Virus record (IMG/VR): IMGVR_UViG_3300036885_000101
Location: 1 to 57,822 of that record
DNA length: 57,822 nt
DNA from: a virus
Taxonomy: Duplodnaviria > Caudoviricetes
Direction: 5' to 3' (one strand)
The position numbers were made by a program, and so were the translations under genes. Position 1 is the stretch's first letter. Each line of letters begins with the position of its first letter. The notes beneath the pieces are model-generated. The model was not told the DNA's origin and searched no databases. It saw only the letters and a program-made list of their open reading frames with translations. Of this stretch, positions 29,847 through 49,058 are shown one piece after another.

Positions 29847-31976
29847 ATGAAAAAATTAATTATTATTTTACTTTGTTTTGGCTTGTCATTTGCAACAAAC
29901 TTAACGAAACACATACGATATGGTGGAGATTATCGAAGCGTACAAGGGTGCTTGGCGGCAAATACCGGAATGACGCAGGATACTCTTAATATTTCTGTGG
30001 ATAGCTGTTTTGTTGATACCGCCATAAATACAAACAGTTATTCAAAAGTAATTAATATTTTTGCCTCATCCGGGAACTATTCAACGACAGGGGCATGGGA
30101 CCCGACAAAGTATTATATCAACGAAGTGGGAGCTGGCGCTACTCCGGCCATTAATATTAAAAGCACTCATGTTAATCTTTATAATTTACAGATAGAAGCA
30201 ACCTCTCCTTCAGCAACAGGAGAGGATTGCATACAATTCACATTCGGTTCCGCAGGCGGGGTCCATCGATTTCATAATCTCATTATAAAGGGACACAACA
30301 ACGGAACATATTCACAATCTGGCATTAACTTCAAAACCACTGCCGAAAATTTATACATGTGGAATTGCATACTTTACAATTTCGGGACAGTTTCTTCCAC
30401 GTACCCGATTTCCGGTAACTCATATGCCGATAGTGTATGGATGTATAATTGCGATTTGATTGGCGGTGTTTTTGGAGTATATACCGGCGGTGCCACTGGA
30501 GCTCAATGGATAGTAAAAAACTGTTATTGTGGCGGCGGCTCATCAGATCGTTATTACGCATCAACCTATTTAACAAAAACAACTTGCGCGTCATCGGACG
30601 GAACAGGCTCTACAGGGTTGATCAATATTGCGTATTCAACCGCGAATTTTACCAATGTTACCGGTGGAAGCGAAAATTTTGCATTGACAAGCGGAAGTGC
30701 CTTGCGAGGGACGGGAACTTATACCGGCGGTGATCTTGCCCCAATGAATTTTACTACAGATATAACGGGGTACGCTTATACAAATCCACCGTCGATAGGC
30801 CCATTTGAATACCCGGCCTCGTATTGCGTCACTACAGTTTCAGCAACGGCGGGAGGCTCGATAACCACTCCGGCGACGGGCAAGGATTCAAGCGTTTGCG
30901 GTGGAGCGGTTTCTATCGTCGCGGCAGCGAACACGGGCTATAGTTTCAACGGGTGGACAGCGACGGGGTCCGTAACTTTTGTCAATGCGGCGTTGACCAC
31001 GACCACGTTTACGAGCAGCGCCACGGGCGGGGCGATCACGGCCAATTTCATCGCCGCGCCCGGCCCGATCAGCTATACTGGCGGCAACATCTCAGCAACC
31101 TACGGCCTCGGCGTTGCGGTGGACTCTGTATGGCATACGATGACTATGAGTAACGCAGGAGGGGCTTTGGATAGCGTCCGCAGTCATCCGGCGCTCTCTA
31201 CATGGGGATTGACCCTCGGCGCGGACGGATCGATCTCCGGCACACCCACGACGTATACGCCGGGAGATTCCGCGTTGACGGATACCATAATCGGATACAA
31301 CGCGATAGGCTCCCAAAAATGCACGACATACGTTACAATCCAGATTTTGCACCAGGGCGGCGTGTGGACCTACGATCGCCTCACCGTGGACACGATGAGC
31401 CTGTATACCATGCAAGTCTACGCGGGCACGGGTGGAATCGTTTCCCCGTCCAGCGTGACGGACAGCCTGAGCCACCCGTTTAGCGCCATGGCAATCCCGG
31501 CAGCGTATCACGTCGTCGGATCGCCTGTATGGTCCCTACGTGCGGGCGGTACTGTGACCGTCAACGCGGCGGCAGGGAGTTTTCGTCTGTTCGGCCCAGA
31601 CACGGCGGATGCGGCGTTTTCGTGGGCCACGCCGGTCGCGCCCACGCTCTACACGCCCAACCAGAACGACAGCAACCAAGCGACGAATCTCAATCTTGTA
31701 TGGAGGTCGAACACAGCCGATAGTGTGTATTATCTCTGGTACGACACGACGCTTTCCTTCAACAGTCCGTTTCTTGTCAAGGACACGCTCGCGGACACAT
31801 CAAAAAACGTGATTCTCGGCCTGACAAACTCGTGGTACCACTGGAAGGTTGCCGCTGGAAACAACGGCGGGACAACAAGCTCCTTTTCGTCGCCCAGGAC
31901 GTTTAAGACCATGAGCGCGTACAGGAGGCGGCATGGCGGGATGAATATAGGGATCGGCATCGGAATCGGCTTTTAA
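29847..31976 (+). CDS. Secreted beta-helix + InlB-B/Ig/Fn3-like protein; candidate head fibre
   Basis: MKKLIIILLCFGLSFA; DITG..PSIGPFEY; ANTGYSFNGWT; YHWKVAA; C-terminal MNIGIGIGIGF. Confidence 0.7.
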   Translation: MKKLIIILLCFGLSFATNLTKHIRYGGDYRSVQGCLAANTGMTQDTLNISVDSCFVDTAINTNSYSKVINIFASSGNYSTTGAWDPTKYYINEVGAGATPAINIKSTHVNLYNLQIEATSPSATGEDCIQFTFGSAGGVHRFHNLIIKGHNNGTYSQSGINFKTTAENLYMWNCILYNFGTVSSTYPISGNSYADSVWMYNCDLIGGVFGVYTGGATGAQWIVKNCYCGGGSSDRYYASTYLTKTTCASSDGTGSTGLINIAYSTANFTNVTGGSENFALTSGSALRGTGTYTGGDLAPMNFTTDITGYAYTNPPSIGPFEYPASYCVTTVSATAGGSITTPATGKDSSVCGGAVSIVAAANTGYSFNGWTATGSVTFVNAALTTTTFTSSATGGAITANFIAAPGPISYTGGNISATYGLGVAVDSVWHTMTMSNAGGALDSVRSHPALSTWGLTLGADGSISGTPTTYTPGDSALTDTIIGYNAIGSQKCTTYVTIQILHQGGVWTYDRLTVDTMSLYTMQVYAGTGGIVSPSSVTDSLSHPFSAMAIPAAYHVVGSPVWSLRAGGTVTVNAAAGSFRLFGPDTADAAFSWATPVAPTLYTPNQNDSNQATNLNLVWRSNTADSVYYLWYDTTLSFNSPFLVKDTLADTSKNVILGLTNSWYHWKVAAGNNGGTTSSFSSPRTFKTMSAYRRRHGGMNIGIGIGIGF

Positions 31977-31994
31977 CCGGAAAGGTGGTGCGGT

Positions 31995-32339
31995 ATGAAC
32001 TTATCGGCAGAACAGAATGCATTCTTGCTCGATTTTGCCAAGTTGATCGAATTTATCTACAATTCCGGCGACGGCATGCTCGTGACCGAAGGCGAGGGAT
32101 ACCGGACTGTTGAGCAACAGCAAATCTATTTCAACACCGGGAAATCAAAAACCATGAACAGTAATCATCTAAGGCGGCTTGCCCATGACGTCAATTTTAT
32201 CAAAAACGGACAGATGGTTACCGACAAGGTAACGCTCCAAAAATATGCCGATTATTGGAAAAGTCTAAACCCGCTTAACCGATGGGGGGGAGAATTCTCA
32301 AATCTGTACGATTACGATCACTTTGAGCGTAATGTATGA
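31995..32339 (+). CDS. Endolysin, M15 family peptidase
   Basis: GEGYRTVEQQ, SNHLRRLAHD, RWGG..DYDHFE. Confidence 0.9.
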   Translation: MNLSAEQNAFLLDFAKLIEFIYNSGDGMLVTEGEGYRTVEQQQIYFNTGKSKTMNSNHLRRLAHDVNFIKNGQMVTDKVTLQKYADYWKSLNPLNRWGGEFSNLYDYDHFERNV

Positions 32340-32428
32340 AAATGCACTGGCTCGTGCCGTACCTGATAATTTTTGCCGTAGTTGAAACGGCGGTTTTGGT
32401 TTTCGCATACTATTCACTTTCACCTTAA
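32336..32428 (+). CDS. 30-aa membrane peptide in the lysis module
   Basis: ATGA overlap; MKMHWLVPYLIIFAVVETAVLVFAYYSLSP (not in the ORF track). Confidence 0.4.
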   Translation: MKMHWLVPYLIIFAVVETAVLVFAYYSLSP

Positions 32429-32443
32429 CCTTTTGGAGGTTTT

Positions 32444-32839
32444 ATGTTTTCCCGAATTCCGTTTCTGTTCGTAATGATTCTGATGGTTGTCGGCGTTTCT
32501 ATGGTATTTGCGGATACCACAGCAACGGAAGCGCAGGGGCCGTGGTATGTCCAGATCCTTGTGGCCGCGATCCCGGCGCTTGTAGTGTACATTACCAGCC
32601 AAATCCGCAGCCACGCTAAAGACGGAACGATCAAAGAACTTGCTTTAGTGGCCCAAAAAGTCAAGCCGTATGAACCGATAGCCGAAGAAGTGTTGTCGGC
32701 GCTGGAAGCAAAATATCCGGTTTTAAAAACAAACGTGACGAAAGTTGAAACCGTAATCCAAACTCCGATAGGCCAGGCAGTTAAGAATGCGGCGCAGCAG
32801 GTTGTAGAGAATTTACAGCCGACACCGGGGCAGGTTTAA
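32444..32839 (+). CDS. Holin-like membrane protein
   Basis: Two hydrophobic segments; next to the endolysin. Confidence 0.55.
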   Translation: MFSRIPFLFVMILMVVGVSMVFADTTATEAQGPWYVQILVAAIPALVVYITSQIRSHAKDGTIKELALVAQKVKPYEPIAEEVLSALEAKYPVLKTNVTKVETVIQTPIGQAVKNAAQQVVENLQPTPGQV

Positions 32840-32840
32840 C

Positions 32841-33071
32841 GTGTGGATCAAGGCTCTTTTCGAAGCAATAGTCCTTCTGCTACAGCAGCTTGGCTATGTC
32901 GAGAAAAAAGTGGACGACGCAAGCGCAAAGAAACAAACACCGGAGGCGAAGTATGCGAAAGACAAGGAGGCAATGGATGAAGCACTCGCTAAAAATGATG
33001 TTGATTCTATCAACCTGCTTACTAATGACGTGCTGCCGCCACCCACGGGTAGTGGTGATCCCAAGCGATAA
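32841..33071 (+). CDS. Inner-membrane spanin (Rz-like)
   Basis: N-terminal hydrophobic helix and helical tail; overlaps a lipoprotein gene. Confidence 0.6.
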   Translation: MWIKALFEAIVLLLQQLGYVEKKVDDASAKKQTPEAKYAKDKEAMDEALAKNDVDSINLLTNDVLPPPTGSGDPKR

Positions 33072-33180
33072 CGCGGTTCACGGAATCACGGATTCGACGA
33101 TGGTCATATCCAAAGCTGAATACCAGAAGCTTTTCGATGCCGCCGCGTATTGGAAAAGCAGATGCGAGAGCGGCAAATAA
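32977..33180 (+). CDS. Outer-membrane spanin lipoprotein (Rz1-like)
   Basis: AAGGAGG RBS; MKHSLKMMLILSTCLLMTCC lipobox-like; overlaps the Rz-like gene in another frame. Confidence 0.7.
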   Translation: MKHSLKMMLILSTCLLMTCCRHPRVVVIPSDNAVHGITDSTMVISKAEYQKLFDAAAYWKSRCESGK

Positions 33181-33202
33181 TATATTATAACTAGGATAAT
33201 GA

Positions 33203-33230
33203 AGAAGGCCGTGTAACAGCGGCCTTTTTC
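33203..33230 (+). terminator. Intrinsic terminator ending the late operon
   Basis: AAGGCCG-tgtaacag-CGGCCTT-ttt. Confidence 0.8.
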
Positions 33231-33258
33231 ATTCTAAAAAAATAAATAAACAAAGTTG

Positions 33259-33287
33259 TTGACAACACTGTTTAAAAGGTGTATATT
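33259..33287 (+). promoter_or_regulatory. Sigma70 early promoter P1
   Basis: TTGACA-N17-TATATT with TG extension; near-copy at 44173. Confidence 0.85.
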
Positions 33288-33304
33288 AGAATAAAGGAGA
33301 AACT

Positions 33305-33514
33305 ATGAAGAACAGAACATCGAGGATTTACGACAGTGATGCAGTGTGGGCTGAGGCGGTAGCGGAAGTTTTGACTGAGAGCAAAAAGGATACTTTTGAC
33401 ACGTCGAAGTCGAGTACCGCGACAGTGATCCATGACGCTGTGGAGTGTTACAAGCATTCAGAAGTGTATCGAGCGAAGATACTTCCCTTGCTTCCAAAGA
33501 AGATGAGGGTTTAA
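33305..33514 (+). CDS. Hypothetical early protein
   Basis: AAGGAG RBS after P1. Confidence 0.6.
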   Translation: MKNRTSRIYDSDAVWAEAVAEVLTESKKDTFDTSKSSTATVIHDAVECYKHSEVYRAKILPLLPKKMRV

Positions 33515-33516
33515 TT

Positions 33517-33720
33517 ATGTGGATGTACATTGCTATTCCACTGACGCTTGGATTTTTTTCTGGCGTTTATCTTGTAGAGGCGCATTTCAAATATATTATC
33601 CGAAAACAAATCGAAACGATTCAAAGAGACTATGAAGATGATATGAAACATCCTACGGTTACTCCTGCTATGTACGGCTATGCGTCTTATAAGGTAAAAG
33701 AACTAAGGAGAATGCTATGA
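33517..33720 (+). CDS. Small membrane protein
   Basis: N-terminal TM MWMYIAIPLTLGFFSGVYLV. Confidence 0.55.
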   Translation: MWMYIAIPLTLGFFSGVYLVEAHFKYIIRKQIETIQRDYEDDMKHPTVTPAMYGYASYKVKELRRML

Positions 33721-33894
33721 AATTCGACAAGACAGAGATCAAGCAGAGTCCGAAGCGGCAGGAAGAGCCGATGATCGAAATGAGGGAGATTGTAGAGGAT
33801 GCTCACAGCCGAGCTGTTGATATCATAACCGTTATTCGTGCGGCATTAAAAGACATTTCACAGAGATCGAATTAAACTAAAGAGGGGTACGCAA

Positions 33895-34869
33895 ATGAAG
33901 TATACAAACAAATTCAAATTGCCGCAGTCATTGGTTGACGCGCTGACTAATGACGACTACGATCTTACCAATGCCCCAGCAAACATCATATCGGTAACAA
34001 CCAGCATTGCTCCGGCAAAGCTTAAGACCCTTGAATGGCGGCATTGGGACGCATTAGAGGCTGATGTTTCAGAGCTTCTGTGGCGCATGATGGGAACGGC
34101 ATGCCACTACGTTGTCGAGCTTGCAGCGAAAGGAGAGAGGCTTTCCGAGGAACGCTGGTATCTTGATGTGATTGACTGGACGATTCACACAGCGCCGGAA
34201 GGTGTGAAGGCTCAGGATTGCAAATGGTTCAAGAAGGATCATATTTACCTTTCCGGCAAGATGGATGTTTACGATCACGCGACAAAGAAGGTGGAAGATT
34301 ACAAATTCACGTCGCTATGGTCCTGGATGTTTGATCGGGCGGCAAAGCCTGAACACATCGCGCAGTTGAATATGAACTCCTTTGCAATTCGTCTGCTTGG
34401 TTTTCCGGTTGAGAAGGCAAGTATTGTGATGTTGTTCAAGGATTGGTCGAAGAGCGCCATGCGAAAAGGAGAATACAACGACAAGTTTTCAGGTGAATGC
34501 TTGCTTCCTGTGAACGTCAAGGAAGTTGCGGCACCGATGTGGAACGACGACTTCACAAAAGAGTACATCATGCAGCGCATTAACCAGCACATTGAAGCCA
34601 AAACCAAGTATACCAACGATGACGACATACCGGAATGCACGCCGGAAGAGCGATGGAGCAAGCCGACCAAGTACGCGGTCATGAAGAAAGGTAAGGAGCG
34701 TGCGTTGCGGTTACACGACACGCTTGAACAGGCAGAGATCCATGCTAAAAGCGATCCGGCATTACAAATTGAAGAACGCAAAGGCGGAGATATCAGGTGT
34801 ACCGATTATTGCAGCGCAAATTTTCTATGTTCATATTACAAAAAAGTTTACGGTAACAGCAACAAATAA
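33895..34869 (+). CDS. PD-(D/E)xK (Cas4-like) exonuclease
   Basis: GTACH, LSGKMD..VEDYK, QLN, C-terminal C..YC..C; adjacent to ERF. Confidence 0.85.
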   Translation: MKYTNKFKLPQSLVDALTNDDYDLTNAPANIISVTTSIAPAKLKTLEWRHWDALEADVSELLWRMMGTACHYVVELAAKGERLSEERWYLDVIDWTIHTAPEGVKAQDCKWFKKDHIYLSGKMDVYDHATKKVEDYKFTSLWSWMFDRAAKPEHIAQLNMNSFAIRLLGFPVEKASIVMLFKDWSKSAMRKGEYNDKFSGECLLPVNVKEVAAPMWNDDFTKEYIMQRINQHIEAKTKYTNDDDIPECTPEERWSKPTKYAVMKKGKERALRLHDTLEQAEIHAKSDPALQIEERKGGDIRCTDYCSANFLCSYYKKVYGNSNK

Positions 34870-34898
34870 CTTGACTATGCTAATCAAGATCTGAACAT

Positions 34899-35081
34899 AT
34901 GAAACTTCACGAATCTGCTTTGACAGAAAAACAGATTGCAGCTCTTAAGAAAATGTATGATACTGGTAAGTTTTCTCACAGAGATTTAGCGAGAATGGTT
35001 AATGTGGATAAAAGTCAAATAAGCAGGTATTTTCAAAAGATGAAACCGATTACCACGGAGGATCAATCATGGAAACAGTAA
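34899..35081 (+). CDS. Small HTH DNA-binding protein
   Basis: FSHRDLARMVNVDKSQISR. Confidence 0.75.
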   Translation: MKLHESALTEKQIAALKKMYDTGKFSHRDLARMVNVDKSQISRYFQKMKPITTEDQSWKQ

Positions 35082-35986
35082 CAAAAGTAACAAACGGGAT
35101 ACAGGAAGCCGCAAAGGAGCCGATAGAAGCCGTAGTATCAAAAAAGGTGTTCCCGGTAAAGAAGAAATCCCTGCTTGCAGAAGCAATGGTAAAATGCCAG
35201 AGCCTTATCAATCCGGCAGGAAAGAGCGGGGAGAACAAGTTTGACCACTACAAGTATTCTACTCTTGAGGATTACTGCAATCAGCTTAAGCCGGCGCTAA
35301 CCGCTTCAGAGCTTGCGGTGTACTTCAATCAGGACGAGATTACAGACAAAGGTATCCGGGAAACATCGACAGGCAAGAAGGAATACGTAATCAGGGTGAA
35401 GCTTACCGCGACGATCATGCATAGTTCCGGGGAATGTATGGATGTGGTAGGATACGGGGAAGGCCAGGATCGAGGTGACAAGGCTATCTACAAAGCGATT
35501 ACAGGGTGCAAGAAGTACCTGCTTGCTAATGCGTTCAACATCCCGACGACTGACGACCCGGAAGTAGACTCACATGATGCTGAAGAAAAGTTACCGCCGA
35601 AAGGCCAGAGATTCAAGGACGAACAGGCGGTAGTGTCCAGAGCGTTGGTAGATCAAGAGAAAAAGGCCGCAGAATCTCCTCAGAAGGCCCAGGACGCAGG
35701 CAAACCAGTACCGGGAAGCCAACTGCCAGCCAAGAAGAAAGAACCCTCTGACGAGGACCAGGCAAAGGACGGACTGATCATAACGGCCCAGGTGAAAGCA
35801 TTGCAGAAAAAGCGTACTCAGTTCAAAATACCGGATGCTAAATGGAAAGCATGGCTATTTGCGAAATACGCTATCCTGACAGCGTGGAAGATAAAGCAGG
35901 AATGGTTTGCAGCGATAGATGGAACTGTGACACTTAACCCAGCAGAGATAATCGAATTTGTTACAGCAGATGATGTGGCGCAGTAG
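35069..35986 (+). CDS. erf: ERF-family single-strand annealing protein
   Basis: KSGENKFDHYKY, GEGQDRGDKAIYKAITGCKKYLLANAFNIPTTDDPE. Confidence 0.9.
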   Translation: METVTKVTNGIQEAAKEPIEAVVSKKVFPVKKKSLLAEAMVKCQSLINPAGKSGENKFDHYKYSTLEDYCNQLKPALTASELAVYFNQDEITDKGIRETSTGKKEYVIRVKLTATIMHSSGECMDVVGYGEGQDRGDKAIYKAITGCKKYLLANAFNIPTTDDPEVDSHDAEEKLPPKGQRFKDEQAVVSRALVDQEKKAAESPQKAQDAGKPVPGSQLPAKKKEPSDEDQAKDGLIITAQVKALQKKRTQFKIPDAKWKAWLFAKYAILTAWKIKQEWFAAIDGTVTLNPAEIIEFVTADDVAQ

Positions 35987-35995
35987 AGACATGAG

Positions 35996-36024
35996 TTTAC
36001 ATAATAAAAAAGACGATTTAAAAT
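35996..36024 (+). promoter_or_regulatory. Sigma70 promoter upstream of the cassette array (Pc-like)
   Basis: TTTACA-N17-TAAAAT, about 80 bp before the first GTT core. Confidence 0.65.
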
Positions 36025-36152
36025 GAAAAATAAATTAAACTATATAAATCATAATGATAACAATTGCAGACGACATATTGTAAAACCCGTCTGATGGATA
36101 TTACCTGTTGGCTGCAATGCCCGGTGAACCATGTAAAATAGGAGGTCGTCAA

Positions 36153-36500
36153 ATGATTAATGATAGGGTTTTAAAGTCAAGTGACATTATGCTGCTTGGT
36201 GATATTCTCGTTACAATAAACGGTTCTCAAATTCCTGTTATCGGGTATTCCGGCCAAGTTGTTTCTGATGCTGTCAACGATCATACAAACTTTATCGAAT
36301 GCCGCCGACCTCAAAAAGTAGAGGAGTCACCGGGCACAGTTCCGCCAGTAGGCGCAGCCAACAGCCAAAGTGTGACGGCGCTGAGTGAAATAGTTTGGGA
36401 TTGGCTCACTGAAAATGCTGTCGATGTTATGGTTGACAAGTGTGACGTTAATATGCTAATTCAGCGCCTAAATGCCGGAATATCGGCACTTCACACTTAG
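36153..36500 (+). CDS. Cassette 1 hypothetical protein
   Basis: GGAGG RBS; reads through the attC-like arm. Confidence 0.6.
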   Translation: MINDRVLKSSDIMLLGDILVTINGSQIPVIGYSGQVVSDAVNDHTNFIECRRPQKVEESPGTVPPVGAANSQSVTALSEIVWDWLTENAVDVMVDKCDVNMLIQRLNAGISALHT

Positions 36501-36553
36501 GCGAACGTTGGTTGCAATAGCGGCCAAGGACTTTACAAATAGGAGCGCGGCTT

Positions 36554-36823
36554 ATGAATATAATTTGCGATAAGTGTAAATATGTTTCTGGTTTTTCATC
36601 TGAATTTCCGTGCAATAGATGCGTTGTAATTGCCATTAATTGTTTTGTTCCAAGCAATGCCGCGCTCAATTCTGAGGAGTTGGCCGCTACAGTTCCGGCA
36701 GTAGCCGCAGCCAACAAACAAAGTGACAAAATTAAACCTTGTGGCTGGCAATATTCTTGTGGATACGTTCGGGTCAATAAGGTGTGCAAGGGTCCGACGT
36801 GTAATATATACGATCCGGTTTAA
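36554..36823 (+). CDS. Cassette 2 Cys-rich hypothetical protein
   Basis: AGGAG RBS; CxxC motifs. Confidence 0.6.
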   Translation: MNIICDKCKYVSGFSSEFPCNRCVVIAINCFVPSNAALNSEELAATVPAVAAANKQSDKIKPCGWQYSCGYVRVNKVCKGPTCNIYDPV

Positions 36824-36887
36824 CTTCGCACGTTTGTCAAACGTTGGCTGCAATGCCCGGTGAACCATTTAAACAGGAGGCGCGGGA

Positions 36888-37286
36888 ATGAGAAAGATAC
36901 ATTTGCAAATGGATGGGAATCAGATAGTGGCGACGTGGGACGATTTTGATTGTCTTGCTGTTTCTCCGGCAGGCTTTGGCGACAATATCGGCGAAGCCGT
37001 AAGCGCGTTGATAAACGAAACGGCTTCATATGCACTTAACGGCATCGTATCAAGCATTGAGAACGCAGCACACCTCACAAATAGTAGCCGTATTACAGAG
37101 GCAAGAGGTGAAGACCGCGCCTCTAAATCAGAGGAGTCACCGGGCACAGTTCCCGGAGTACCGGCAGCCAACACGGCCAGCCCGCAATTGCTGGCATTGG
37201 TTGCCCTTATGAAAGTATCGGCTACAGTATCAACGACAGCGGTTTTAAAAGTGATCTACGATGAGTTCCCGCAACTGCGGGCGTAG
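36888..37286 (+). CDS. Cassette 3 hypothetical protein
   Basis: AGGAGG RBS; DGNQIVATWDDF..SPAGFGD. Confidence 0.65.
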   Translation: MRKIHLQMDGNQIVATWDDFDCLAVSPAGFGDNIGEAVSALINETASYALNGIVSSIENAAHLTNSSRITEARGEDRASKSEESPGTVPGVPAANTASPQLLALVALMKVSATVSTTAVLKVIYDEFPQLRA

Positions 37287-37339
37287 GCGAAACGCGTTGT
37301 GCGAAATGCCCGTTTACTTTTTAATTATAGGAGGTGCTT

Positions 37340-37552
37340 GTGCAGTTAGCAATCGACATTCTTAGATCGGAGCTTGAGTCTTACAAGCAGTGTTTGCGCA
37401 CCGAAGGTAAGTATAGCGTGTATCCGGAGTATCGTGGCCCGAACGTGGATTTTGCCCGTAACATAGCTGAGTTGCAGGACGCAATAGCGCACCTCTTAAA
37501 AGCTGTGGAAGTAAACGGTCACATCGCACAACAAATAAATGGTGTTCGCTAA
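37340..37552 (+). CDS. Cassette 4 hypothetical protein
   Basis: AGGAGG before GTG 37340. Confidence 0.55.
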   Translation: MQLAIDILRSELESYKQCLRTEGKYSVYPEYRGPNVDFARNIAELQDAIAHLLKAVEVNGHIAQQINGVR

Positions 37553-37908
37553 CGCACATGCGGAGTACCGCACGTCACTATTTATCGAACGATGGGCGCG
37601 CTGGAATAAGAGATAAGAGAAGACACCCAGGTTTACCTAACAAGGTATTCAATTTTGACTCGCATGCTCTCGCGAGTAGGTTGCTTTATGAAACATTCAC
37701 TTTTTCAGGAATACAGTGTTCGGAATGGCGTAAAACGTCGTCTTTGCGTACCCATAGTGATCGAAGACTCCCACGCGAACTTCGAGGGTCGACGGTGTGT
37801 GAGCTTTAGGGATTGCGCCATTCCCTTTCTTAGCGAGTCGCAAGCTGGCGGGCCTATTGCTCGCAAATTAATACCGACGTTAGGCCGCTTAAAAACAAAG
37901 GAGAAATT

Positions 37909-38187
37909 ATGAAAGTCGTAGCATTGGAGATTAAAAAGCGCGAAAGTTACGATAGTGAATATCCGAATGAAATTGTTGGCGTTGTGCAAATAACCGGCGA
38001 AACGGGTAAAATGGAGGTTCGTCTTCGCCCTAAAACCGTTGCCGAAATTTTCAGAATGTGCAAATCCGATGTTCAAATGGTTGCCAATTACAACGCCAAC
38101 CAAGCGGCTTTGGCTTGTGAAAATGTCGCCGGTACTATCGAACTTCAGGTCGAAAACAACGATCTAAAACAAATCGCGGCGGCCTAA
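37909..38187 (+). CDS. Cassette 6 hypothetical protein
   Basis: AAGGAG RBS; stop codon lies inside the GCCTAAC inverse core, as in classical cassettes. Confidence 0.7.
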   Translation: MKVVALEIKKRESYDSEYPNEIVGVVQITGETGKMEVRLRPKTVAEIFRMCKSDVQMVANYNANQAALACENVAGTIELQVENNDLKQIAAA

Positions 38188-38249
38188 CAACCGCTTCAAT
38201 TCTGACTCGTGGGCGGATACAGGCTACAAAAAATTATAGGAGGCGCTAA

Positions 38250-38426
38250 ATGTTTGAAGAGTTTTGTCGTGTGTGTAAAAACAAACATAAATTTATAATT
38301 TGCGGTAATTGTAAAACAAAAATGGCCCCTCCGCCATATTATGAATTTAGCGCCTCAATTGAGGACGGCAAACCATCCGCAGCGGGACAAGATCCTTTAC
38401 CCGTTAGCGGCGCGAAAACTGAATAG
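38250..38426 (+). CDS. 58-aa CxxC protein nested inside the attC-like loop of cassette 6
   Basis: AGGAGG RBS; MFEEFCRVCKNKHKFIICGNCK (not in the ORF track). Confidence 0.55.
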   Translation: MFEEFCRVCKNKHKFIICGNCKTKMAPPPYYEFSASIEDGKPSAAGQDPLPVSGAKTE

Positions 38427-38486
38427 CTTATCACTCGCAAATTAAGCGGACGTTAGGGTGCGGCAAAGACTAAATAGGAGCGCGGC

Positions 38487-38753
38487 ATGATAAACGCAGA
38501 ACAAGGCATAGAGCGGTTTGAAGCACATTTTATTAATTGTGATGGAATAAACTCCATAAACGCGGATCTTATGAAAGAGGCAATTGACGCAATAAGAGCC
38601 GCGCTCCAAGAGAATAATAATACCGCTGTAGCTTTGCTCGATGAGATTGAAAACGCCCTCGGCGATTGCAAGGACAACTTAGACTTTTCTTGCCGAGTCA
38701 CGGAAATTTTACAACGGAGGCACGATGAAAAACAAAATCAAAAAATTGATTGA
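38487..38753 (+). CDS. Cassette 7 protein a
   Basis: AGGAG RBS. Confidence 0.6.
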   Translation: MINAEQGIERFEAHFINCDGINSINADLMKEAIDAIRAALQENNNTAVALLDEIENALGDCKDNLDFSCRVTEILQRRHDEKQNQKID

Positions 38754-39192
38754 ATCATTTTTAGACAACGAAATGGAAACAGACGAATTAGTTGATAACA
38801 TAGATGCAATTTGTCGCGCCTCCAACACAGAAATGAATATAAATAATTATTTGGCGGCACGTCGGTTGACAATAGAATCAAGCCTTGCCGCCGAAATACT
38901 CGCCGGAAATACGGTCAAGCAGCAATGCGAACAGACGGCGTTAGCAGAGATTTCGGCGATGGAACAAACATTTTTTAAGAGCGCCGCCAGCGAGCGGGAA
39001 ATTTCCCTTTCCGGGTGTGCATCGAGTGGTGCGTGCGGTTATACCGGATATCCAAGAATGTGCTATTCTACTAGTCCATGCGAGCATAAGATTGCGCTGA
39101 AAGCCGCAATCAACAATGGCATCAATCTTGACTCGCCACGTTTGCCAATCGGTAGCGGCGAAAATAAGAGTCTTTTGGGTACGCAGCATTAA
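38725..39192 (+). CDS. Cassette 7 protein b
   Basis: GGAGG RBS; runs into the attC-like arm. Confidence 0.6.
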   Translation: MKNKIKKLIESFLDNEMETDELVDNIDAICRASNTEMNINNYLAARRLTIESSLAAEILAGNTVKQQCEQTALAEISAMEQTFFKSAASEREISLSGCASSGACGYTGYPRMCYSTSPCEHKIALKAAINNGINLDSPRLPIGSGENKSLLGTQH

Positions 39193-39323
39193 GTCGGTTA
39201 CTGTCTATCAATGCGGTTGTAGGCTCGCAAATTATGCCTACGTTAGCGCATTTTTGGCTGCGGGAAATAAAACAAGATCGGGCGGCATAGGCCCGGCGTC
39301 ATGCCGGGCGAGGAGAATATAAA

Positions 39324-39629
39324 ATGAAACTTATTTGCACATTGTCTAAACCCGCATACGTTCAAAAAACAATGAAAGAATTATGCGAAAGAAAAGATAT
39401 TTCTTTGGTTCAAATTTTGGATAATTCTGAAGTAAAAGCGGAGTCACCGGGCACAGTTCCCGGAGTACCGGCAGCCAACACGGCCAGCCTAAAATTGCCG
39501 AGCACAGAAGATGTTTGGAATTATGTATATAATCATCATGAATTTTGCGAAGATTTTGCAAGAGAAAACGAAGCTCGTGATATATCAAAACTTGTTTACG
39601 AATTTATATATCGGCAACTTCAGGCGTAG
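39324..39629 (+). CDS. Cassette 8 hypothetical protein
   Basis: AGGAG RBS; shares ESPGTVPGVPAANTAS with cassette 3. Confidence 0.6.
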   Translation: MKLICTLSKPAYVQKTMKELCERKDISLVQILDNSEVKAESPGTVPGVPAANTASLKLPSTEDVWNYVYNHHEFCEDFARENEARDISKLVYEFIYRQLQA

Positions 39630-39689
39630 CCGGAACATTGCACGCAATAGGCCGCGAACCATATTGTAAACGCGCCAAGGAGAAAACAA

Positions 39690-39986
39690 ATGACAGTTTT
39701 TAAAGCCATAAAAAGCATTTGCTCTATGCGAATAAATGATGTGTCGGGCAATCGTTTACGGGTAAAGTATCGTTGGGTATGTGCAAAGAAAAAGTGTTCT
39801 TGTTTGTGTGCTGAATCAAATTGCGAAATAGTAAAAAGAATTGGCGCGTTAAAAAATGCGGAGTCGCTGCCTACAGTTCGCCCGAAGCGGGCCGCGCAAC
39901 AACGCAAGGAAGCAATATTACGCTTTTGTGGAAACTGTCAACGCAATGATGATAGGTCAAGCGAAAAGGTAAATTATCATAGATAA
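39690..39986 (+). CDS. Cassette 9 Cys-rich hypothetical protein
   Basis: AAGGAG RBS. Confidence 0.55.
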   Translation: MTVFKAIKSICSMRINDVSGNRLRVKYRWVCAKKKCSCLCAESNCEIVKRIGALKNAESLPTVRPKRAAQQRKEAILRFCGNCQRNDDRSSEKVNYHR

Positions 39987-40075
39987 CTTAATATTAGCGT
40001 GGCCGCATATGCGGTCGTATCACTCGCTGCTTAAGCGGGCGTTAGGCCGCAGCGGGGAACTAAATAGGAGGCGTG

Positions 40076-40456
40076 ATGAAACTTGATGTAAACAAAATAC
40101 TGGCGTTGCGGGCGATTTATAGTAGAGAAACAGGATGCCCAACATCGTGCCCTGACGGGAAGTTATTTACAATTCAATACACAACATGGCTCGAAGCTCG
40201 CGCCTCCAATACAGAACAGAATAATTCCGCTGTAGCTTTGCTTGCTGATGTTTATAGGCACATAGAAACGGGTGAGATTAAAATGGGTTGTTTGCGCGGT
40301 TTGAAACATGACATTGCAGTCTGGGCGCAATCCCCGCTGCCGCCTAACAATGGCATCAATCTTGACTCGCCACGTTTGCCAACAGTAAATCCGTCAAGTG
40401 AAATTGACGTGGGTGGAGTTGGTATTGGCCCTCGCGGTTGTGGCGACATAGACTAA
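40076..40456 (+). CDS. Cassette 10 hypothetical protein
   Basis: AGGAGG RBS; shares NNGINLDSPRLP with cassette 7b. Confidence 0.6.
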   Translation: MKLDVNKILALRAIYSRETGCPTSCPDGKLFTIQYTTWLEARASNTEQNNSAVALLADVYRHIETGEIKMGCLRGLKHDIAVWAQSPLPPNNGINLDSPRLPTVNPSSEIDVGGVGIGPRGCGDID

Positions 40457-40639
40457 TAATGCGGTTGCGCCTATGAACACAACGGAACTTTTATTTGAAT
40501 ACGGAATAGCTATCGTTTTTCTTATTGTCTGCATTTTTATAATACGAAGCGTAACCGTATTGTATGCGTTTCAGCGAATTAACTCAACGTTAATCACTTT
40601 TGCAATATGGATGATTATGTGTGTAAAAGAAAAAACTAA

Positions 40640-41047
40640 ATGTATAAAATAAAATACCGTGGCATATCTAAAGGCGGTAAGATCACGCTTGATCCAGGCC
40701 ACTTGGAAGCTTATAATGCAGCAGTGAGACGCTTAGAGGGTCAAAAGATAGAGGTAACGATATGCAAGCGCCAGAAGGCCAATACGCGCAGCGAGCAAAA
40801 GTATTTCTACGCTGTGATCGTGAAGATGATAGCCGATGAAATAGGTGAGAGCGAGACGCGAGCTTTTGAGATTATACAGGCGCAGTTTTTTGAATATGAG
40901 GATGCTAACGGACGGAAGTACATACGGTCAACGGCGCTTGGTGAATGGACAACGGTGGAGTGGGAAAGTCGGATGCAGGATATCCGGCAGTGGGCGCAGG
41001 ACTATTTAAACTTAACGATTCCAACGCCGAACGAAACAGACTATTGA
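40640..41047 (+). CDS. NinB/Orf-like protein
   Basis: RSEQKYFYAVIV..RSTAL..TVEW..I..WA..L.IPTPNE. Confidence 0.65.
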   Translation: MYKIKYRGISKGGKITLDPGHLEAYNAAVRRLEGQKIEVTICKRQKANTRSEQKYFYAVIVKMIADEIGESETRAFEIIQAQFFEYEDANGRKYIRSTALGEWTTVEWESRMQDIRQWAQDYLNLTIPTPNETDY

Positions 41048-41072
41048 CAGCGTGTTGAAATAGTGGTATATT
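41044..41072 (+). promoter_or_regulatory. Sigma70 promoter of the replication operon
   Basis: TTGACA-N17-TATATT. Confidence 0.8.
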
Positions 41073-41156
41073 ATTAAGCGGATCGTGGCACCTTGAGCAA
41101 GTGTCTAAAAGGATGTGTGCGGTGAAAACGAAAATACTCCCTGAAAAGGGATTACA

Positions 41157-41219
41157 AGAGCTGGTGTCGAATAAGGCATACCGCACAATGCCGCTCATCG
41201 ACACTGGCTCTTTTTATTT
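41157..41219 (+). terminator. Leader terminator/attenuator upstream of the replication initiator
   Basis: AGAGCTGGTGTCGA pairs with TCGACACTGGCTCT (two G-U pairs), followed by a T-run. Confidence 0.6.
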
Positions 41220-41232
41220 GTAGGAGGGGTAT

Positions 41233-41949
41233 ATGGATAGAAAATTTGAAGGTGTTTATTTTTCTTTTGAACTTTGGTTAGATAAGAGTATTCCAGCATT
41301 AGAAAAAATGGTTTTTGTCGAAATACGATCTCTTGATAATAATAAAGGTTGTTTTGCAGGTAACGATCATTTTGCAGAAATGTTTGGTGTTACCGAGAGA
41401 CAAGTACAGCGATATATTGCCTCTTTAAAAAACCGTGGGTATATTACTCAAGAATCTTTTGATGGAAGAAAAAGGGTATTGAGAGTATCTGAGGGAATGA
41501 GGGGTGACAAAAATGTCATATCTGATACGACATCTATGTCATTACAGACTAGAAGTAATTGTCGTGACATCTCTTCTATTATAGAGAAAGAACATAAAGA
41601 AAAGAATAAGGACAATTCTAAATACATTCCTTTAAGTGAATATCTAAAGGAGCGATTAATAAAAGAATCACCGGATGCTATCATAAAAGAGAGTCAAGTA
41701 AAAGATTGGTGTAACGATTTTAGATTAATGGTTGAGCAGGACAAGCGAACAGACCAACAGATAAGAGAAAAAATTGACGCGGTTTTTTCCGATTCTTTTT
41801 GGTGTCGGACTATTCAGTCAGCGTCGAAATTACGCTTGCGATGGAACGAGGGAAAATTGTCTCACTTAAATGTTGTGCAAATCGGTCACGACGATCCACC
41901 GGAAGAATTTGTTGATTCACCTAACGCCTACGACATGCCGCAACGATGA
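41233..41949 (+). CDS. Replication initiator (N-terminal winged HTH)
   Basis: GCFAGNDHFAEMFGVTERQVQRYIASLKNRGYI; C-terminal FW..IQSASKLR; precedes DnaB. Confidence 0.85.
   Translation: MDRKFEGVYFSFELWLDKSIPALEKMVFVEIRSLDNNKGCFAGNDHFAEMFGVTERQVQRYIASLKNRGYITQESFDGRKRVLRVSEGMRGDKNVISDTTSMSLQTRSNCRDISSIIEKEHKEKNKDNSKYIPLSEYLKERLIKESPDAIIKESQVKDWCNDFRLMVEQDKRTDQQIREKIDAVFSDSFWCRTIQSASKLRLRWNEGKLSHLNVVQIGHDDPPEEFVDSPNAYDMPQR
41506..41615. other. Putative replication origin: three 23-bp-spaced iterons plus an A-rich tract
   Basis: GACAAAAATGTC (41506), GACATCTATGTC (41529), GAAGTAATTGTC (41552) inside the initiator gene. Confidence 0.55.
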
Positions 41950-43334
41950 ACGAACATTATGATAAGATTCCACCGCAGGCTCTAGACGTGGAGCGCACAG
42001 TCCTTGGGTCAATGATGATCGACCGAGAGGCGGCGAACACGGCAATTGACATGCTTAGTGAAGGGTGTTTCTACGCAACACAGAACCAACGTGTATTCGT
42101 TGCTATGCGAAACCTTTATAATAAAAGCACGCCGATTGACCTGATAACGGTATGCCATGAGTTAAAAGATAAAAAGTGGTTGGAATCAGTAGGAGCAGAA
42201 CCGTACCTTTCTGAACTAAACAACAGTGTGGCTACAGCGGCGAATATCAAACATCATTGTCAAATATTGGACAATAAAAGGATACTCCGGGAGTTGATTT
42301 CAAACGCCGCCACAATAACCACAGACGCGGTTGAGGCTGAAGATCCAATAGCATGTCTTGAGCGGTCACAAAATAAAATCTATTCTATTGGTAATGTCTA
42401 CGAGGCAAAAAACACGCATATTCATGGCGCTTTGGTCAAATTCACAGAGGATATGTCGAGCAGAAAGTATGGTGAGCTGTCTGGACTTTCAACAGGGTTT
42501 GCGGACATCGACGACCTTACCGGGGGATTTCAGCGGAAAGACCTGATACTTATTGCTGGCAGACCTAGCAGTGGAAAGACAGCGTTAGAGTGCGCTATTA
42601 TTTTACGCATGGCGCGTGCAGGGATACCTGTAGGGGCCTTTTCAATGGAGATGGACGAGCGGTCTATTGCGTCACGCCTTGTGTGCCTGGACGCACGGAT
42701 AAACAGCGTGCATATCCGTAAGGCGATTTTGACCACAGAAGAAAAGGCTAAAATCAGTCTTGCTGTGAACAGCATTCATACCTTGCCGATTCACATAGAC
42801 GATTCGTTTCACCTGAATGTGTCGAAGGCCCGGAGCCGGTTGCGCAGGATGATATCAAATTACGGCATTCAAGCGTGTTTCTTTGACCACTGGCACCTGA
42901 TGGAGCCTGACCACGACATGAAGTACATGAAAGGTGCGGAGCTGATAAACGAGCGTGCGCGGCGTTTAAAGGGCCTTGCGAAGGACTTGAATATACCCAT
43001 CATTGCTCTTGCACAACTATCGCGGGAATCAGACAGGCGTGTTGTGAAGAGTCATAGACCTATTCTGAGCGATTTGAGAGAGGGTGGCGAGCAGGACGCG
43101 GATTTAGTCATGTTCACGCACCGAGAAAGCGAGTACCCGCCGATATTTAAAGGGAAAACGGCCGAGGCGATGGCTGAAGCACGCCAGAAGTGGGAAGCGG
43201 AGTATCTTGGCAAGGCAGAGATCATTGTAGCTAAACAGCGCAACGGGCCTCAAGGTAAGATAGTTTTAGGGTTTGAAAAGCAGTATGCAAGGTATTTTGA
43301 TGACAATGACACCAAGGCGACTGATGAATGGTGA
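41946..43334 (+). CDS. dnaB: Replicative DNA helicase
   Basis: IPPQALDVE, AGRPSSGKT Walker A, FSMEM, LAQLSR, SDLRE, KQRNGP. Confidence 0.96.
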   Translation: MNEHYDKIPPQALDVERTVLGSMMIDREAANTAIDMLSEGCFYATQNQRVFVAMRNLYNKSTPIDLITVCHELKDKKWLESVGAEPYLSELNNSVATAANIKHHCQILDNKRILRELISNAATITTDAVEAEDPIACLERSQNKIYSIGNVYEAKNTHIHGALVKFTEDMSSRKYGELSGLSTGFADIDDLTGGFQRKDLILIAGRPSSGKTALECAIILRMARAGIPVGAFSMEMDERSIASRLVCLDARINSVHIRKAILTTEEKAKISLAVNSIHTLPIHIDDSFHLNVSKARSRLRRMISNYGIQACFFDHWHLMEPDHDMKYMKGAELINERARRLKGLAKDLNIPIIALAQLSRESDRRVVKSHRPILSDLREGGEQDADLVMFTHRESEYPPIFKGKTAEAMAEARQKWEAEYLGKAEIIVAKQRNGPQGKIVLGFEKQYARYFDDNDTKATDEW

Positions 43335-43540
43335 TGTTGCGCCAAGTATCAAGACCGTGCACTTGTGGAAGCTACTACCGCGTTGATGATAAGTGTAATA
43401 AATGCGGCAAGGTTGATTCGGTTAAAGAAGAACACGAAGTTTTCACTGGACTTGTCACGGCGGCAGGCCCACAGTGGAGCAAGAAGAAACACAGATACCT
43501 TACGACGAAAGAAATTGCGGCAGGAGAAAGGGGTGGTTGA
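43328..43540 (+). CDS. Small zinc-ribbon protein
   Basis: CTCG..CNKCG. Confidence 0.5.
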   Translation: MVMLRQVSRPCTCGSYYRVDDKCNKCGKVDSVKEEHEVFTGLVTAAGPQWSKKKHRYLTTKEIAAGERGG

Positions 43541-43740
43541 TGGTTTTTAATCGCTTGACAAAGTACCGACACAAGGCAACGAAATGTATTTCTATTTTCA
43601 TAAAAGACAGTCAGGCGACACCTGAAGTGTTTGCGCAGTATGAGGAAATAAAAGAAGTGGTGACTGAGCCGATAGAGAAAGATACGAGCTACAACGTGAA
43701 GCGGATGATCGAGAAAAATACCGGGGTGCAAAGTGAGTGA
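43540..43740 (+). CDS. Hypothetical protein
   Basis: TGATG coupling. Confidence 0.45.
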   Translation: MVFNRLTKYRHKATKCISIFIKDSQATPEVFAQYEEIKEVVTEPIEKDTSYNVKRMIEKNTGVQSE

Positions 43741-44176
43741 TTTAATGTTCATGAAGAAGAAGTGGAAGAAGGTTCACGGTAAAAAAGGATTGATCCATAC
43801 TCTTGACCGTGTTTTCAGTGAGTATATCAGACGGCGAGACGCAAACAGTTTTGGATTGTGCCGATGTATCACTTGTGGAAGGTACGGAAATTGGCAGTAT
43901 GAGATGGACGCAGGACATTTTATTTCACGAAACAAGCCGAGTATCAGGTTCAACCCGCTCAATGCCGCAGCGCAGTGTCCTAACTGCAATCGTTTCTCTT
44001 CTGGCAAGCAATACGAATTTGGATTAGCGATAGATCGAAAGTACGGAAAAGGAACAGCGGAACAGCTATTGATTTTAAGCAAAATGAAAAGTAAATACAC
44101 TGACGAGCTATTGCAGTTAAAGATAGACGAGTTTAGGCAGAAAATAAAAGAATTAAAAAATAAACAAAGTTGTTGA
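43733..44176 (+). CDS. ninG: NinG/Rap-family endonuclease
   Basis: FSEYIRRRD..CITCG..DAGHFISR..RFNPLN..QCPNCN. Confidence 0.9.
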   Translation: MSDLMFMKKKWKKVHGKKGLIHTLDRVFSEYIRRRDANSFGLCRCITCGRYGNWQYEMDAGHFISRNKPSIRFNPLNAAAQCPNCNRFSSGKQYEFGLAIDRKYGKGTAEQLLILSKMKSKYTDELLQLKIDEFRQKIKELKNKQSC

Positions 44177-44201
44177 CAATGCTGTTTAATCATTGTATAT
44201 T
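44173..44201 (+). promoter_or_regulatory. Sigma70 promoter P2, near-copy of P1
   Basis: TTGACA-N17-TATATT inside a ~50-bp block shared with 33245-33293. Confidence 0.85.
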
Positions 44202-44247
44202 AGAATAGTGCGGGAAAGAACTATTCACAATTAAGCGGGAGGTTTTT

Positions 44248-44460
44248 ATGAGCGAGCCACAACACATTCATCCTATCATTCAAGGTGTTTTAGAGGCAAC
44301 GCGGCAGATGTACGGCGTATCAGTGAGCACCGCAGTAATAGCTGAGAGTGATTCGAGCGAATTTGAGGCAACTGCGGATATCGGCCAATGCCCAGAATGC
44401 GGTTGCTTAGTGATAAATGGCGTGTGTCAGGGAATGATCTGTAAGGAACGGCTCCTATAA
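44248..44460 (+). CDS. Small zinc-ribbon protein
   Basis: GGAGG RBS; CPECG..C..C. Confidence 0.6.
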   Translation: MSEPQHIHPIIQGVLEATRQMYGVSVSTAVIAESDSSEFEATADIGQCPECGCLVINGVCQGMICKERLL

Positions 44461-44478
44461 TCCGAAAGAGGAAAAAAA

Positions 44479-45016
44479 ATGTGTAATTTTTGGACCGCAA
44501 TAGTAACAAAAGACGGAGATGTGTTTTTTTGATGAGATGGAAGACTCTCACGAAAAAATCATCAGGGATCACAAATTAATTGATGACAACAATGATAAAA
44601 ATAAGCGCCAGTTTGTTCGTATTGAGATAACTCCTCCTGCCGGTGATGTTTTTACTAATGTAGACGGATGGAATTTTAAGGTTGATGAGGGTGAAACTCC
44701 GGTTTGGTGGAGAGTCGGACTCGAAAAGTCTGCAAGGTCAGTCTGTAAAAACTACATTGCAAAAGTGGTTTTTGAGAACAAAGACGGAATCGAATTGAAG
44801 TCGGGCCGAGGCTGGTTTAAAAAGTGTGTAAATATTGTACTGAGGGGATCAAGCCACGCGGAACTGTGGGGATCAAGCCACGCGGTACTGAGGGAATCAA
44901 GCCACGCGGACAAAATAGAAAACGATGGAATCGCAATTGATAAAACCGGCGATGTACCTAAGATTATTGTAGCGAACAAGAAAATCAAGACAGAGATTTT
45001 TAAAGCAAAAGTATGA
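44479..45016 (+). pseudogene. Hypothetical protein with 8-aa repeats, interrupted by a 1-nt frameshift in a T7 tract
   Basis: GAGG RBS and ATG 44479 give MCNFWTAIVTKDGDVFF then TGA; removing one T at 44524-44530 joins it to ORF 44519-45016. Confidence 0.55.
44837..44908 (+). repeat. 3 x 24-bp tandem repeat (xLxxSSHA)
   Basis: gtactgaggggatcaagccacgcg / gaactgtggggatcaagccacgcg / gtactgagggaatcaagccacgcg. Confidence 0.9.
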
Positions 45017-48241: not shown

Positions 48242-48301
48242 TCGGTTTTATTTATATTATATAACAGTGTAATGCCAGTCTATTGGCGAAAGATGGATAA
48301 G

Positions 48302-49027: not shown

Positions 49028-49058
49028 GGCGAGCAAAATAAAAACACAGGAGAATATC

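Follow-up and report, generated by a model that had tools for sequence, protein, structure and literature searches.

Covarying arms in an array of small phage genes: a possible lock on ribosome-binding sites and exchange points between gene halves

Introduction

Tiny ORFan genes crowd the early regions of phage genomes, and little is understood of how they arise and turn over. An array of about eleven such genes in the virus record IMGVR_UViG_3300036885_000101 (Caudoviricetes) raises a specific question: why do the same short nucleotide blocks recur in the middle of genes whose products are otherwise unrelated? The window referred to below is the complete virus record (57,822 bp, with direct terminal repeats), almost all genes of which lie on the + strand. 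The array spans 4.4 kb of it (36,100-40,460), between the ERF gene and the replication genes, and its open reading frames (ORFs) encode 58-155 aa.

A previous examination of this DNA (the original prediction) took the blocks for recombination arms that serve to shuffle protein halves. The analysis reported here leads us to lean, by a small measure, towards a different view, in which each module of the array is closed by long-range helices whose strands are the repeated blocks. We likewise hold it somewhat probable that these helices constitute an mRNA fold that locks the ribosome-binding site (RBS), with the conserved arms doubling as in-frame crossover patches. The properties computed in support of this reading were complementarity, covariation, placement of the Shine-Dalgarno (SD) sequence inside a helix, and modular reassortment.

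Results

Repeated blocks and the peptides they encode

The three repeats described in the original prediction were all located where it had placed them. Family D1 comprises 36320-36381, 36673-36734, 37130-37191 and 39437-39498, plus a fifth variant at 39860, and includes an exact 50-nt identity between 37133-37182 and 39440-39489. In family D2, 39112-39148 and 40346-40382 are 100% identical, with weaker copies at 37636 and 38183, while the two members of family D11 (36107-36137 and 36843-36873) are 97% identical. These repeats are far above chance. The class-B pattern occurs 4 times in the genome compared to 0.00 expected from 100 shuffles; the pattern GGAG-N10-CAGTTC has 5 exact matches genome-wide, every one of them inside the array, and 8 matches when one mismatch is allowed, compared to a shuffle mean of 1.91.

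The shared peptides proved to be genuine translations: EESPGTVPGVPAANTAS lies in ORF 36888-37286 and AESPGTVPGVPAANTAS in ORF 39324-39629, variants are found in three further ORFs (36108-36500, 36554-36823 and 39690-39986), and NNGINLDSPRLP is present twice, in ORFs 38725-39192 and 40073-40456. Overlooked at that time was that the block at 36107 and 36843 (26-31 nt) is the reverse-complement partner of the mid-ORF block, that the partner sequences covary, and that the SD region is paired as well.

Arms that vary in sequence and retain pairing

The 5' arm starts 6-20 nt past the preceding stop codon and consists, in order, of a 9-nt P1 (beginning with GTT, GTTR-type), AA, a 10-nt P2, an A/U-rich stretch and P4, the last of which contains the SD sequence or the start codon. 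The 3' arm is situated 120-440 nt downstream of the 5' arm, within the same ORF, and runs from P4' (anti-SD) through, usually, GGAG to P2', then CA or CAGTTC with a 4-bp hairpin, and finally P1', which ends in YAAC. In the 31-nt block that precedes two genes (36107 and 36843), GTTGGCTGC pairs with GCAGCCAAC and TGCCCGGTGA with TCACCGGGCA. The inner helix is swapped on both strands in unit A2, to TAGCGGCCAA/TTGGCCGCTA, and in unit A5, to TAGGCCGCGA/TCGCTGCCTA. The small hairpin following CAGTTC covaries too (CGCC/GGCG, CGGC/GCCG and CCGG/CCGG).

We then sought, within 600 nt upstream, the best complement of the 10 nt that precede CAGTTC. For the 9 full-arm class-A copies from the window and related contigs, this complement was positioned exactly behind GTTGGCTGCAA. 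By comparison, where this 3' pattern occurs by chance in public collections (~36 matches), only 6-8 of 10 pairs are seen, at arbitrary positions. A descriptor of the arms (a 9-nt P1 starting with GTT, 2-3 nt, a 10-nt P2, 60-450 nt, P2', 0-30 nt, P1') identified, across nine sources, 24 distinct coding-strand units, ten of them consecutive in the related record G003; raw matches numbered 108, compared to 30 in reversed-sequence controls. The 24 units carry 17 P1 and 19 P2 helix variants, and 322 of their 343 pairs are Watson-Crick. Since the helices differ in sequence yet keep their pairing, the arms represent a family defined by structure rather than by sequence. Constant parts are limited to GTT...AAC at the base, the AA/CA internal loop and, usually, a purine-rich GGAG or GGAA before P2'. 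Furthermore, P2' encodes SPG, LAA, SLP or DLQ with pairing retained, indicating that it is the pairing, rather than the peptide, on which selection acts.

An ordinary family of paralogous small genes, whose blocks would be remnants of common descent with no role of their own, would accommodate the resemblance of some C-termini (..QLRA) and the single phase of the class-A copies. It is at odds with N- and C-modules that are unrelated around blocks of up to 100% nucleotide identity, with compensatory changes in three or four helices per unit over 24 units, and with blocks common to phages that lack other similarity in the compared parts. We disfavor this explanation and regard it as very improbable.

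Two other features of the arms deserve mention. An SD-like GGAG or GGAA stands directly 5' of P2' inside the ORFs (in the window at 36323, 36676, 37133, 39440 and 39860, and in most related units); it is exactly GGAG in 12 of 24 units and GGAG-like in ~20 of 24, and it is always unpaired, in a predicted internal loop. In addition, small hairpins of the form NNNN-AGTA-NNNN (such as GCGGAGTACCGC, 37560-37571) recur in class-A 3' arms and in inter-unit spacers of several phages, including L135 and G003.

Ribosome-binding sites within the predicted helices

A scan for perfect stems revealed, for each gene, complementarity between the SD-plus-spacer and sequence situated 8-14 nt upstream of GGAG. 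Instances are GAGCGCGGC (36543/36659), GAGGCGCGG (36877/37115), GAGGCGCTAAAT (38240/38345) and GGAGCGCGGC (38477/38598), and SD pairing was likewise observed in G003 and G002. As a non-circular test, units were picked on P1 and P2 only, and the SD region was compared with the 48 nt preceding P2'. Cognate duplexes averaged -22.9 kcal/mol versus -15.6 kcal/mol (sd 4.0) for non-cognate ones, and the cognate partner ranked first in 12 of 26 units and among the top three in 21 of 26. According to our reading of the duplex table, the SD sequence or start codon falls within a helix in 20 of 24 units. Minimum free energy (MFE) folds reproduced the clasps in five units, with z = -3.3 (A1), -3.2 (A2), -4.0 (A3), -2.9 (C) and -3.1 (the 38250-38426 ORF). 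Finally, pairing between the RBS and downstream sequence was stronger for 11 array genes than for 58 other phage genes (Mann-Whitney p = 0.0025). We place the primary function of the helices in mRNA because a process acting on DNA has no reason to target the SD sequence.

A promoter between the 5' arm and the SD sequence (TATAGG, TAAAAT) was considered and rejected: a start there removes the SD sequence, and the spacing to the -35 element is 20-21 nt.

Organization of the units

The units of the array, all on the + strand, are as follows.

36107-36148 (+): A1 5' arm; P1 36107-36115, AA, P2 36118-36127, SD/P4 36141-36148; paired in the MFE fold
36153-36500 (+): A1 ORF, an ORFan of 115 aa; no Pfam or PHROG family
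36306-36362 (+): A1 3' arm; anti-SD 36306-36312, GGAG 36323, P2' 36327-36336, CAGTTC, hairpin 36343-36354, P1' 36354-36362; translated as EESPGTVPPVGAAN
36368-36498 (+): A1 C-module; closing helix 36368-36375/36491-36498
36507-36853 (+): A2, whole cassette; P1 36507, P2 36518, P4 36543-36551, ORF 36554-36823, anti-SD 36659-36667, 3' arm 36676-36715, C-module helix 36724/36833
36843-37286 (+): A3; P1 36843, P2 36854, P4 36877-36885, ORF 36888-37286, anti-SD 37115-37123, 3' arm 37133-37172, C-module helix 37180-37191/37271-37282
37296-37552 (+): C, without the P3 hairpin; P1 37296-37304, P2 37310-37319, SD 37330, ORF 37334-37552, anti-SD 37489, P2' 37509-37518, P1' 37524-37532
37553-37850 (+): ~300 nt without a convincing ORF; hairpin GCGGAGTACCGC at 37560, class-B 3' arm 37628-37662
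37851-38209 (+): B1; 5' arm with GTTAGGCCGC at 37879-37888, ORF 37909-38187, 3' arm 38175-38209
38240-38426 (+): unit of a zinc-ribbon-like ORF of 58 aa (38250-38426); SD and start 38240-38251 pair with 38345-38356
38429-39192 (+): B2; 5' arm 38429-38466, SD 38477-38486 paired with 38598-38607, ORFs 38487-38753 and 38725-39192, 3' arm 39100-39148 (NNGINLDSPRLP)
39224-39629 (+): A4; 5' arm a hybrid of a class-B flank (39224-39246) followed by part of a class-A arm, ORF 39324-39629, 3' arm 39440-39489 with the same sequence as in A3, own P2 partner only 8/10
39637-39986 (+): A5; P1 39637, P2 39648-39657, P4 39669-39678/39841-39850, ORF 39690-39986, 3' arm 39860-39903 (AESLPTVRPKRAAQ)
40018-40456 (+): B4; 5' arm 40018-40058, SD 40067 paired with 40201-40207, ORF 40073-40456, 3' arm 40331-40382; 18-nt helix 40041-40058/40331-40348 with one mismatch

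The 43-160 nt that separate P1' from the next P1 make up a C-terminal module in some cases and a short spacer in others; each such segment is closed by a helix of its own that ends just before the next GTT. With all 12 segments folded, cognate flanks gave -25.2 kcal/mol versus -14.3 kcal/mol for the others, the cognate combination being best in 10 of 12; for the class-B closing helices, each of the 3 adjacent pairs was best in its row. Because every module is closed by its own helix, the array amounts to a chain of modules between complementary strands.

Two units depart from this plan. The hybrid 5' arm and poor arm fit of A4 (8/10) make it look like a recent recombinant that still lacks compensatory repair. 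The stretch 37553-37850, judged by its sequence, is probably a decayed cassette: an arm remnant at 37591 reads GATGGGCGC where a GTT-type P1 is expected, and 37517-37595 is 81% identical to L135.

Gene halves are exchanged at the arms

A search of a 5.8-billion-protein collection with ORF 36888-37286 returned 35 relatives, 29 of which matched only the N-half and 6 only the C-half; none matched both. The 29 N-half relatives carry at least 13 unrelated clusters of tails, and the 6 C-half relatives have six different heads. Protein P0004 joins the N-module of ORF 36888-37286 to the C-module of its neighbor 36554-36823. P0028 combines the same N-module with two elements of ORF 40073, a module and the class-B peptide. 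The latter ORF is itself a mosaic of at least 3 modules that occur separately elsewhere; a HMMER search with ORF 40073-40456 retrieved 7 other proteins, two of which (the repeat proteins P0038 and P0042) were disregarded, and a separate homologue search with this ORF returned the query alone.

Related sequences tell a similar story at the nucleotide level. A metagenome scan gave 28 matches, 7 of them true (L132, L133, L135, L148 and L153, together with L138 and L144, which are cut by contig ends). The window shares only the A2 cassette (36500-36853, 85.5%) and arms with the compared parts of records G003 (27.9 kb) and G001 (12.3 kb), and tblastn of 14 window proteins against the compared parts of G001-G003 gave zero matches. 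The A3 C-module recurs in L132 at 89% identity, with another N-module and other arms, the homology beginning within P1' and stopping before the next P1. Nine public runs, labeled peat metagenome, contain at least 22% of the sampled words of the array; contigs were compared in four of them, where they break or diverge at the arms (a statement of presence, not of frequency), and array stretches without contig cover in some runs were given no weight, nor was an RNA run (X20) with a share of 0.06. A 17-kb contig of another phage (run X7 record 26) has only 36336-36511 in common with the window, namely the A1 C-module with unlike flanks. The homology breakpoints are 36336/7, 36500, 36511, 36853, 37168 and 37294; boundaries of whole cassettes are at or near P1, the remaining ones at P2' or its junction (J) and inside P1'.

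Other searches for relatives were negative or uninformative. Megablast of 30000-50000 against a phage collection gave zero matches, a related-locus search with the ERF protein found no relative, and viral contigs contained neither the exact class-A 21-mer nor the class-B pattern (0 matches for both). A 14-base 5'-arm pattern had at least 117 matches, which were taken as chance and left unused, while the 3'-arm pattern in genome contigs had 13, all chance by the P2-partner test, so that no prophage or host was found there.

Both halves of these genes appear to be under coding constraint. The N-modules of A2 and A3 had dN/dS ratios of 0.09 and 0.11, respectively, and the A2 C-module, in which all four Cys are retained, had a ratio of 0.72; of 38 codons in the A3 C-half, 6 differ synonymously and 4 non-synonymously from those of L132. 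The original prediction would have failed had the halves always occurred together or had the C-halves lacked constraint; instead, searching the halves separately uncovered alternative partners joined at the block, and the C-halves are constrained. The conserved motif marks swapped-gene junctions between related phages, and exchange of front and back halves at the arms among these phages is, as read from the sequences, an evolutionary fact.

The claim that the blocks stand mid-ORF in a fixed phase also held: all five class-A copies of the window share one phase, as do 11 of 11 when related contigs are included. In-frame joining was borne out for this class only, for the other arms are read in phases 0, 1 and 2 in 2, 5 and 4 units, respectively, and several non-class-A arms hold a stop codon, as in B1, where TAA lies within GCCTAAC and serves as the stop of the ORF. 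Given that the other arm classes are read in all phases, in-frame linking is a property of one arm class and not of the system.

These results bear directly on the proposal that the blocks are recombination arms selected for shuffling protein halves, with exchange driven by the phage ERF and exonuclease. In its favor, N- and C-halves do reassort at the block, class-A arms keep one phase in all 11 copies, the perfect 50-nt identity of A3 and A4 within unrelated genes points to recent exchange, and ERF (PF04404) is encoded just upstream, beside an ORF that the original prediction called an exonuclease. The part that found no support in its stated form concerns the nature of the blocks: they are covarying helix strands that bury the RBS, which recombination alone does not need. 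Direct repeats would suffice for recombination, leaving inverted partners, covariation and SD pairing unexplained; arms of other classes are read in every phase or contain stop codons; no tblastn match to the window ERF or exonuclease was obtained in the compared parts of G001-G003 (window proteins being the only queries); and selection for evolvability is hard to demonstrate. We consider this proposal improbable as an account of the arms.

Resemblance to integron cassettes

The principal rival to an RBS lock is an integron-type cassette array without an integrase (CALIN), in which the segment from P1' to the next P1 is an attC-like site through which the ORFs are merely read. Such a site would fold in single-stranded DNA, and a host integron integrase would recombine it at G|TT. 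Along the coding strand, the order ORF, ...AAC, helix, variable loop, helix, GTT..., ORF, always in a single direction, is the syntax of attC sites. P1' matches P1 of its own unit and not that of the next unit, the classic signature of cassettes, reportedly described by Hall et al. in 1991. The class-B arms are exactly GCCTAAC/GTTAGGC, and the segments between P1' and the next P1 form the cognate-specific helices with a variable loop described above (10 of 12; class B, 3 of 3). AAC/GTT triplets bound all class-A, -B and -C arms, and also 24 of 24 scanned units, although GTT was demanded by the scan; AAC and GTT are given as the conserved triplets of attC sites in 10.1101/030866. CALINs with active attC sites are known in virulent phages (PMC9892861).

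Other observations fit this explanation poorly. A tyrosine recombinase (PF00589) was found in none of 4 records (14 of 14 control genomes matched) and in none of the 30 window ORFs scanned with Pfam. Apart from class B, which fits exactly, the strict consensus is rarely satisfied: GTTRRRY fits 3 of the 14 distinct P1, and RYYYAAC fits 2 of the 13 distinct P1'. Within a unit, complementarity goes on through P2 (10 bp) and the SD helix, an extension not expected of attC sites. Moreover, swaps of N- and C-modules need crossovers beside P1', and the breakpoints are scattered; the exchange therefore looks homologous rather than site-specific. A BLAST search with the class-B element against plasmids yielded chance-level matches only and no attC-like match, an uninformative result given the low sequence conservation of attC sites. 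In Rfam, which holds no attC model, zero matches reached the gathering score and zero had E <= 1. We regard an integrase-less integron array as a possibility of perhaps one chance in four in our own estimation, clearly below even.

The lock and integron explanations are not mutually exclusive. A tentative combination, which we rate slightly lower still, is that the array is an integrase-less phage relative of integron cassettes, whose attC-like hairpins would have extended over the gene start into translated clasps that lock the RBS. If so, one element would be at once cassette boundary, translational lock and in-frame protein linker, and small early proteins, possibly directed against the host, would undergo domain recombination across unrelated genomes in a manner resembling exon shuffling.

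Hammerhead-like ribozymes, CRISPR-repeat mimics, retrons and MITE-type inverted repeats were rejected on motifs, stems and gene content: there are no core motifs, the stems vary, and the window has no reverse transcriptase or transposase. Record G003 encodes an IS200-like Y1 transposase (L003:3874-4332, - strand; PF01797, E = 4.5e-35) with a perfect flanking hairpin, situated between P2 and the SD sequence of one unit. Only 1 of 4 records has this gene, and the window lacks it. An insertion sequence (IS) seems to have entered a cassette here, and an IS200-type transposase as a component of the array was rejected on these grounds.

Discussion

Returning to the RBS lock, which we favor with restrained confidence, the helices would form in a polycistronic early mRNA. 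Each RBS would be locked unless its cistron were under translation, with a ribosome crossing or occupying the 3' arm keeping the site open; an idle cistron would close and may become the target of a double-strand RNase. In this respect the duplex of 9 + 10 bp with a central 2x2 loop resembles RNase III processing signals of phages such as T7. Analogous control is known from the long-distance interaction of MS2, fold-back inhibition in IS10 and the hairpin masking the lysozyme gene of T4 in its early transcripts. Between unrelated modules, nucleotide conservation is confined to the arms, and those of class A keep a single phase throughout; by homologous recombination inside the arms, whole genes, N-modules and C-modules have therefore been exchanged in frame among unrelated phages.

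Several points weigh against a lock of this kind. G.T wobble pairs are no more frequent than A.C (3 versus 4 of 343 pairs), which is unusual for RNA helices and fits pairing at the DNA level equally well. The only universally conserved letters are the GTT that opens P1 and the AAC that closes P1', which attC sites explain and an RNA lock does not. In 4 of 24 units the SD sequence adjoins the helix instead of lying inside it, and the MFE folds of the other six of eleven units have z from -0.7 to -2.0 (counted as weaker than -2). A role in translation is not obvious for the helices closing the C-modules. Lastly, ten array ORFs searched against Pfam and PHROGs matched no family above threshold.

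Among known systems, the array shares features with three. The PeSLs of T4-type phages are described as compact intergenic promoter-plus-terminator units that swap whole genes (Arbiol et al. 2010, PMC2839356; Comeau et al. 2014, PMC4122927). Both they and the array have short regulatory motifs repeated among small non-essential ORFan genes of an early or hyperplastic region, the motifs being points of homologous exchange between otherwise unrelated sequences. Unlike that of PeSLs, the motif of the array is split into two mutually pairing arms 120-440 nt apart, one of them translated inside the ORF; the RBS is paired, and gene halves are swapped in frame. A scan of the arms for promoters and terminators found no site resembling either.

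With attC sites and CALINs (Cury et al. 2016, 10.1101/030866; Qi et al. 2023, PMC9892861), the array has in common small promoterless cassettes in one direction, conservation of structure and not of sequence, an imperfect hairpin with a variable loop bounded by AAC...GTT, and a cassette 5' end that matches its own ...AAC box. It differs from them in having no integrase, in that most boxes depart from the full consensus and ORFs traverse the whole element, and in that complementarity crosses the gene start to the SD sequence and exchange points are scattered.

Long-distance sequestration of the SD sequence is documented for the type I toxin mRNAs hok and aapA3/IsoA3 in Masachis et al. 2019 (PMC6733600), where the internal complementary sequence of gnd is also cited. 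There, as in the array (where it is computed), a far-downstream anti-SD located partly in the ORF traps the SD sequence, covariation lends support, and the question of a window for co-transcriptional translation arises. Those cases each concern a single monocistronic mRNA whose 5' and 3' ends pair, which undergoes 3' processing and which has an antisense RNA, whereas about eleven consecutive cistrons are each locked in the array, and its conserved outer helices are interchangeable. A literature search of limited scope retrieved no account of phage gene arrays whose arms are split, translated and paired with the RBS.

The boundaries of the modules are marked by a searchable, covarying nucleic-acid structure that predicts translation of each gene, and natural relatives display domain-level, in-frame reassortment at the arm structure. 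Natural chimeras are consequently available for probing the roles of N- and C-modules. If confirmed, the fold would provide a rule, open to testing, by which translation of an entire early operon is controlled, a concrete way in which shuffling creates new small phage proteins, and possibly an evolutionary bridge from integron attC sites to mRNA regulatory hairpins.

Genomic setting

The genes and sites that frame the array are listed below; gene assignments are from Pfam unless stated otherwise.

2121: capsid
35069: ERF (PF04404, E = 4e-16), just upstream of the array
Adjoining ERF: ORF called exonuclease in the original prediction; no Pfam match
35996-36024 (+): sigma-70-like promoter candidate before the array, TTTACA-17-TAAAAT, 10/12 matches; consensus match only
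41233: HTH_36 replication protein
41946: DnaB
43733: NinG/HNH
45013: SNF2 helicase
48272: ParB
50235 and 50764: small and large terminase
52918: portal

A tRNA search found zero. Strong sigma-70-like promoter matches are located at 33259-33287 (11/12), 35996-36024 (10/12) and 41044-41072 (11/12). These three bracket the exonuclease/ERF genes, the cassette array and the replication genes, which suggests that the array is one transcription unit. Sugar-modifying genes are scattered among the virion genes, and encode, in order, a glycosyltransferase-methyltransferase fusion (8749-10212), a family-2 glycosyltransferase with TPR (12428-13597) and an NAD-dependent sugar epimerase/dehydratase (55729-56661).

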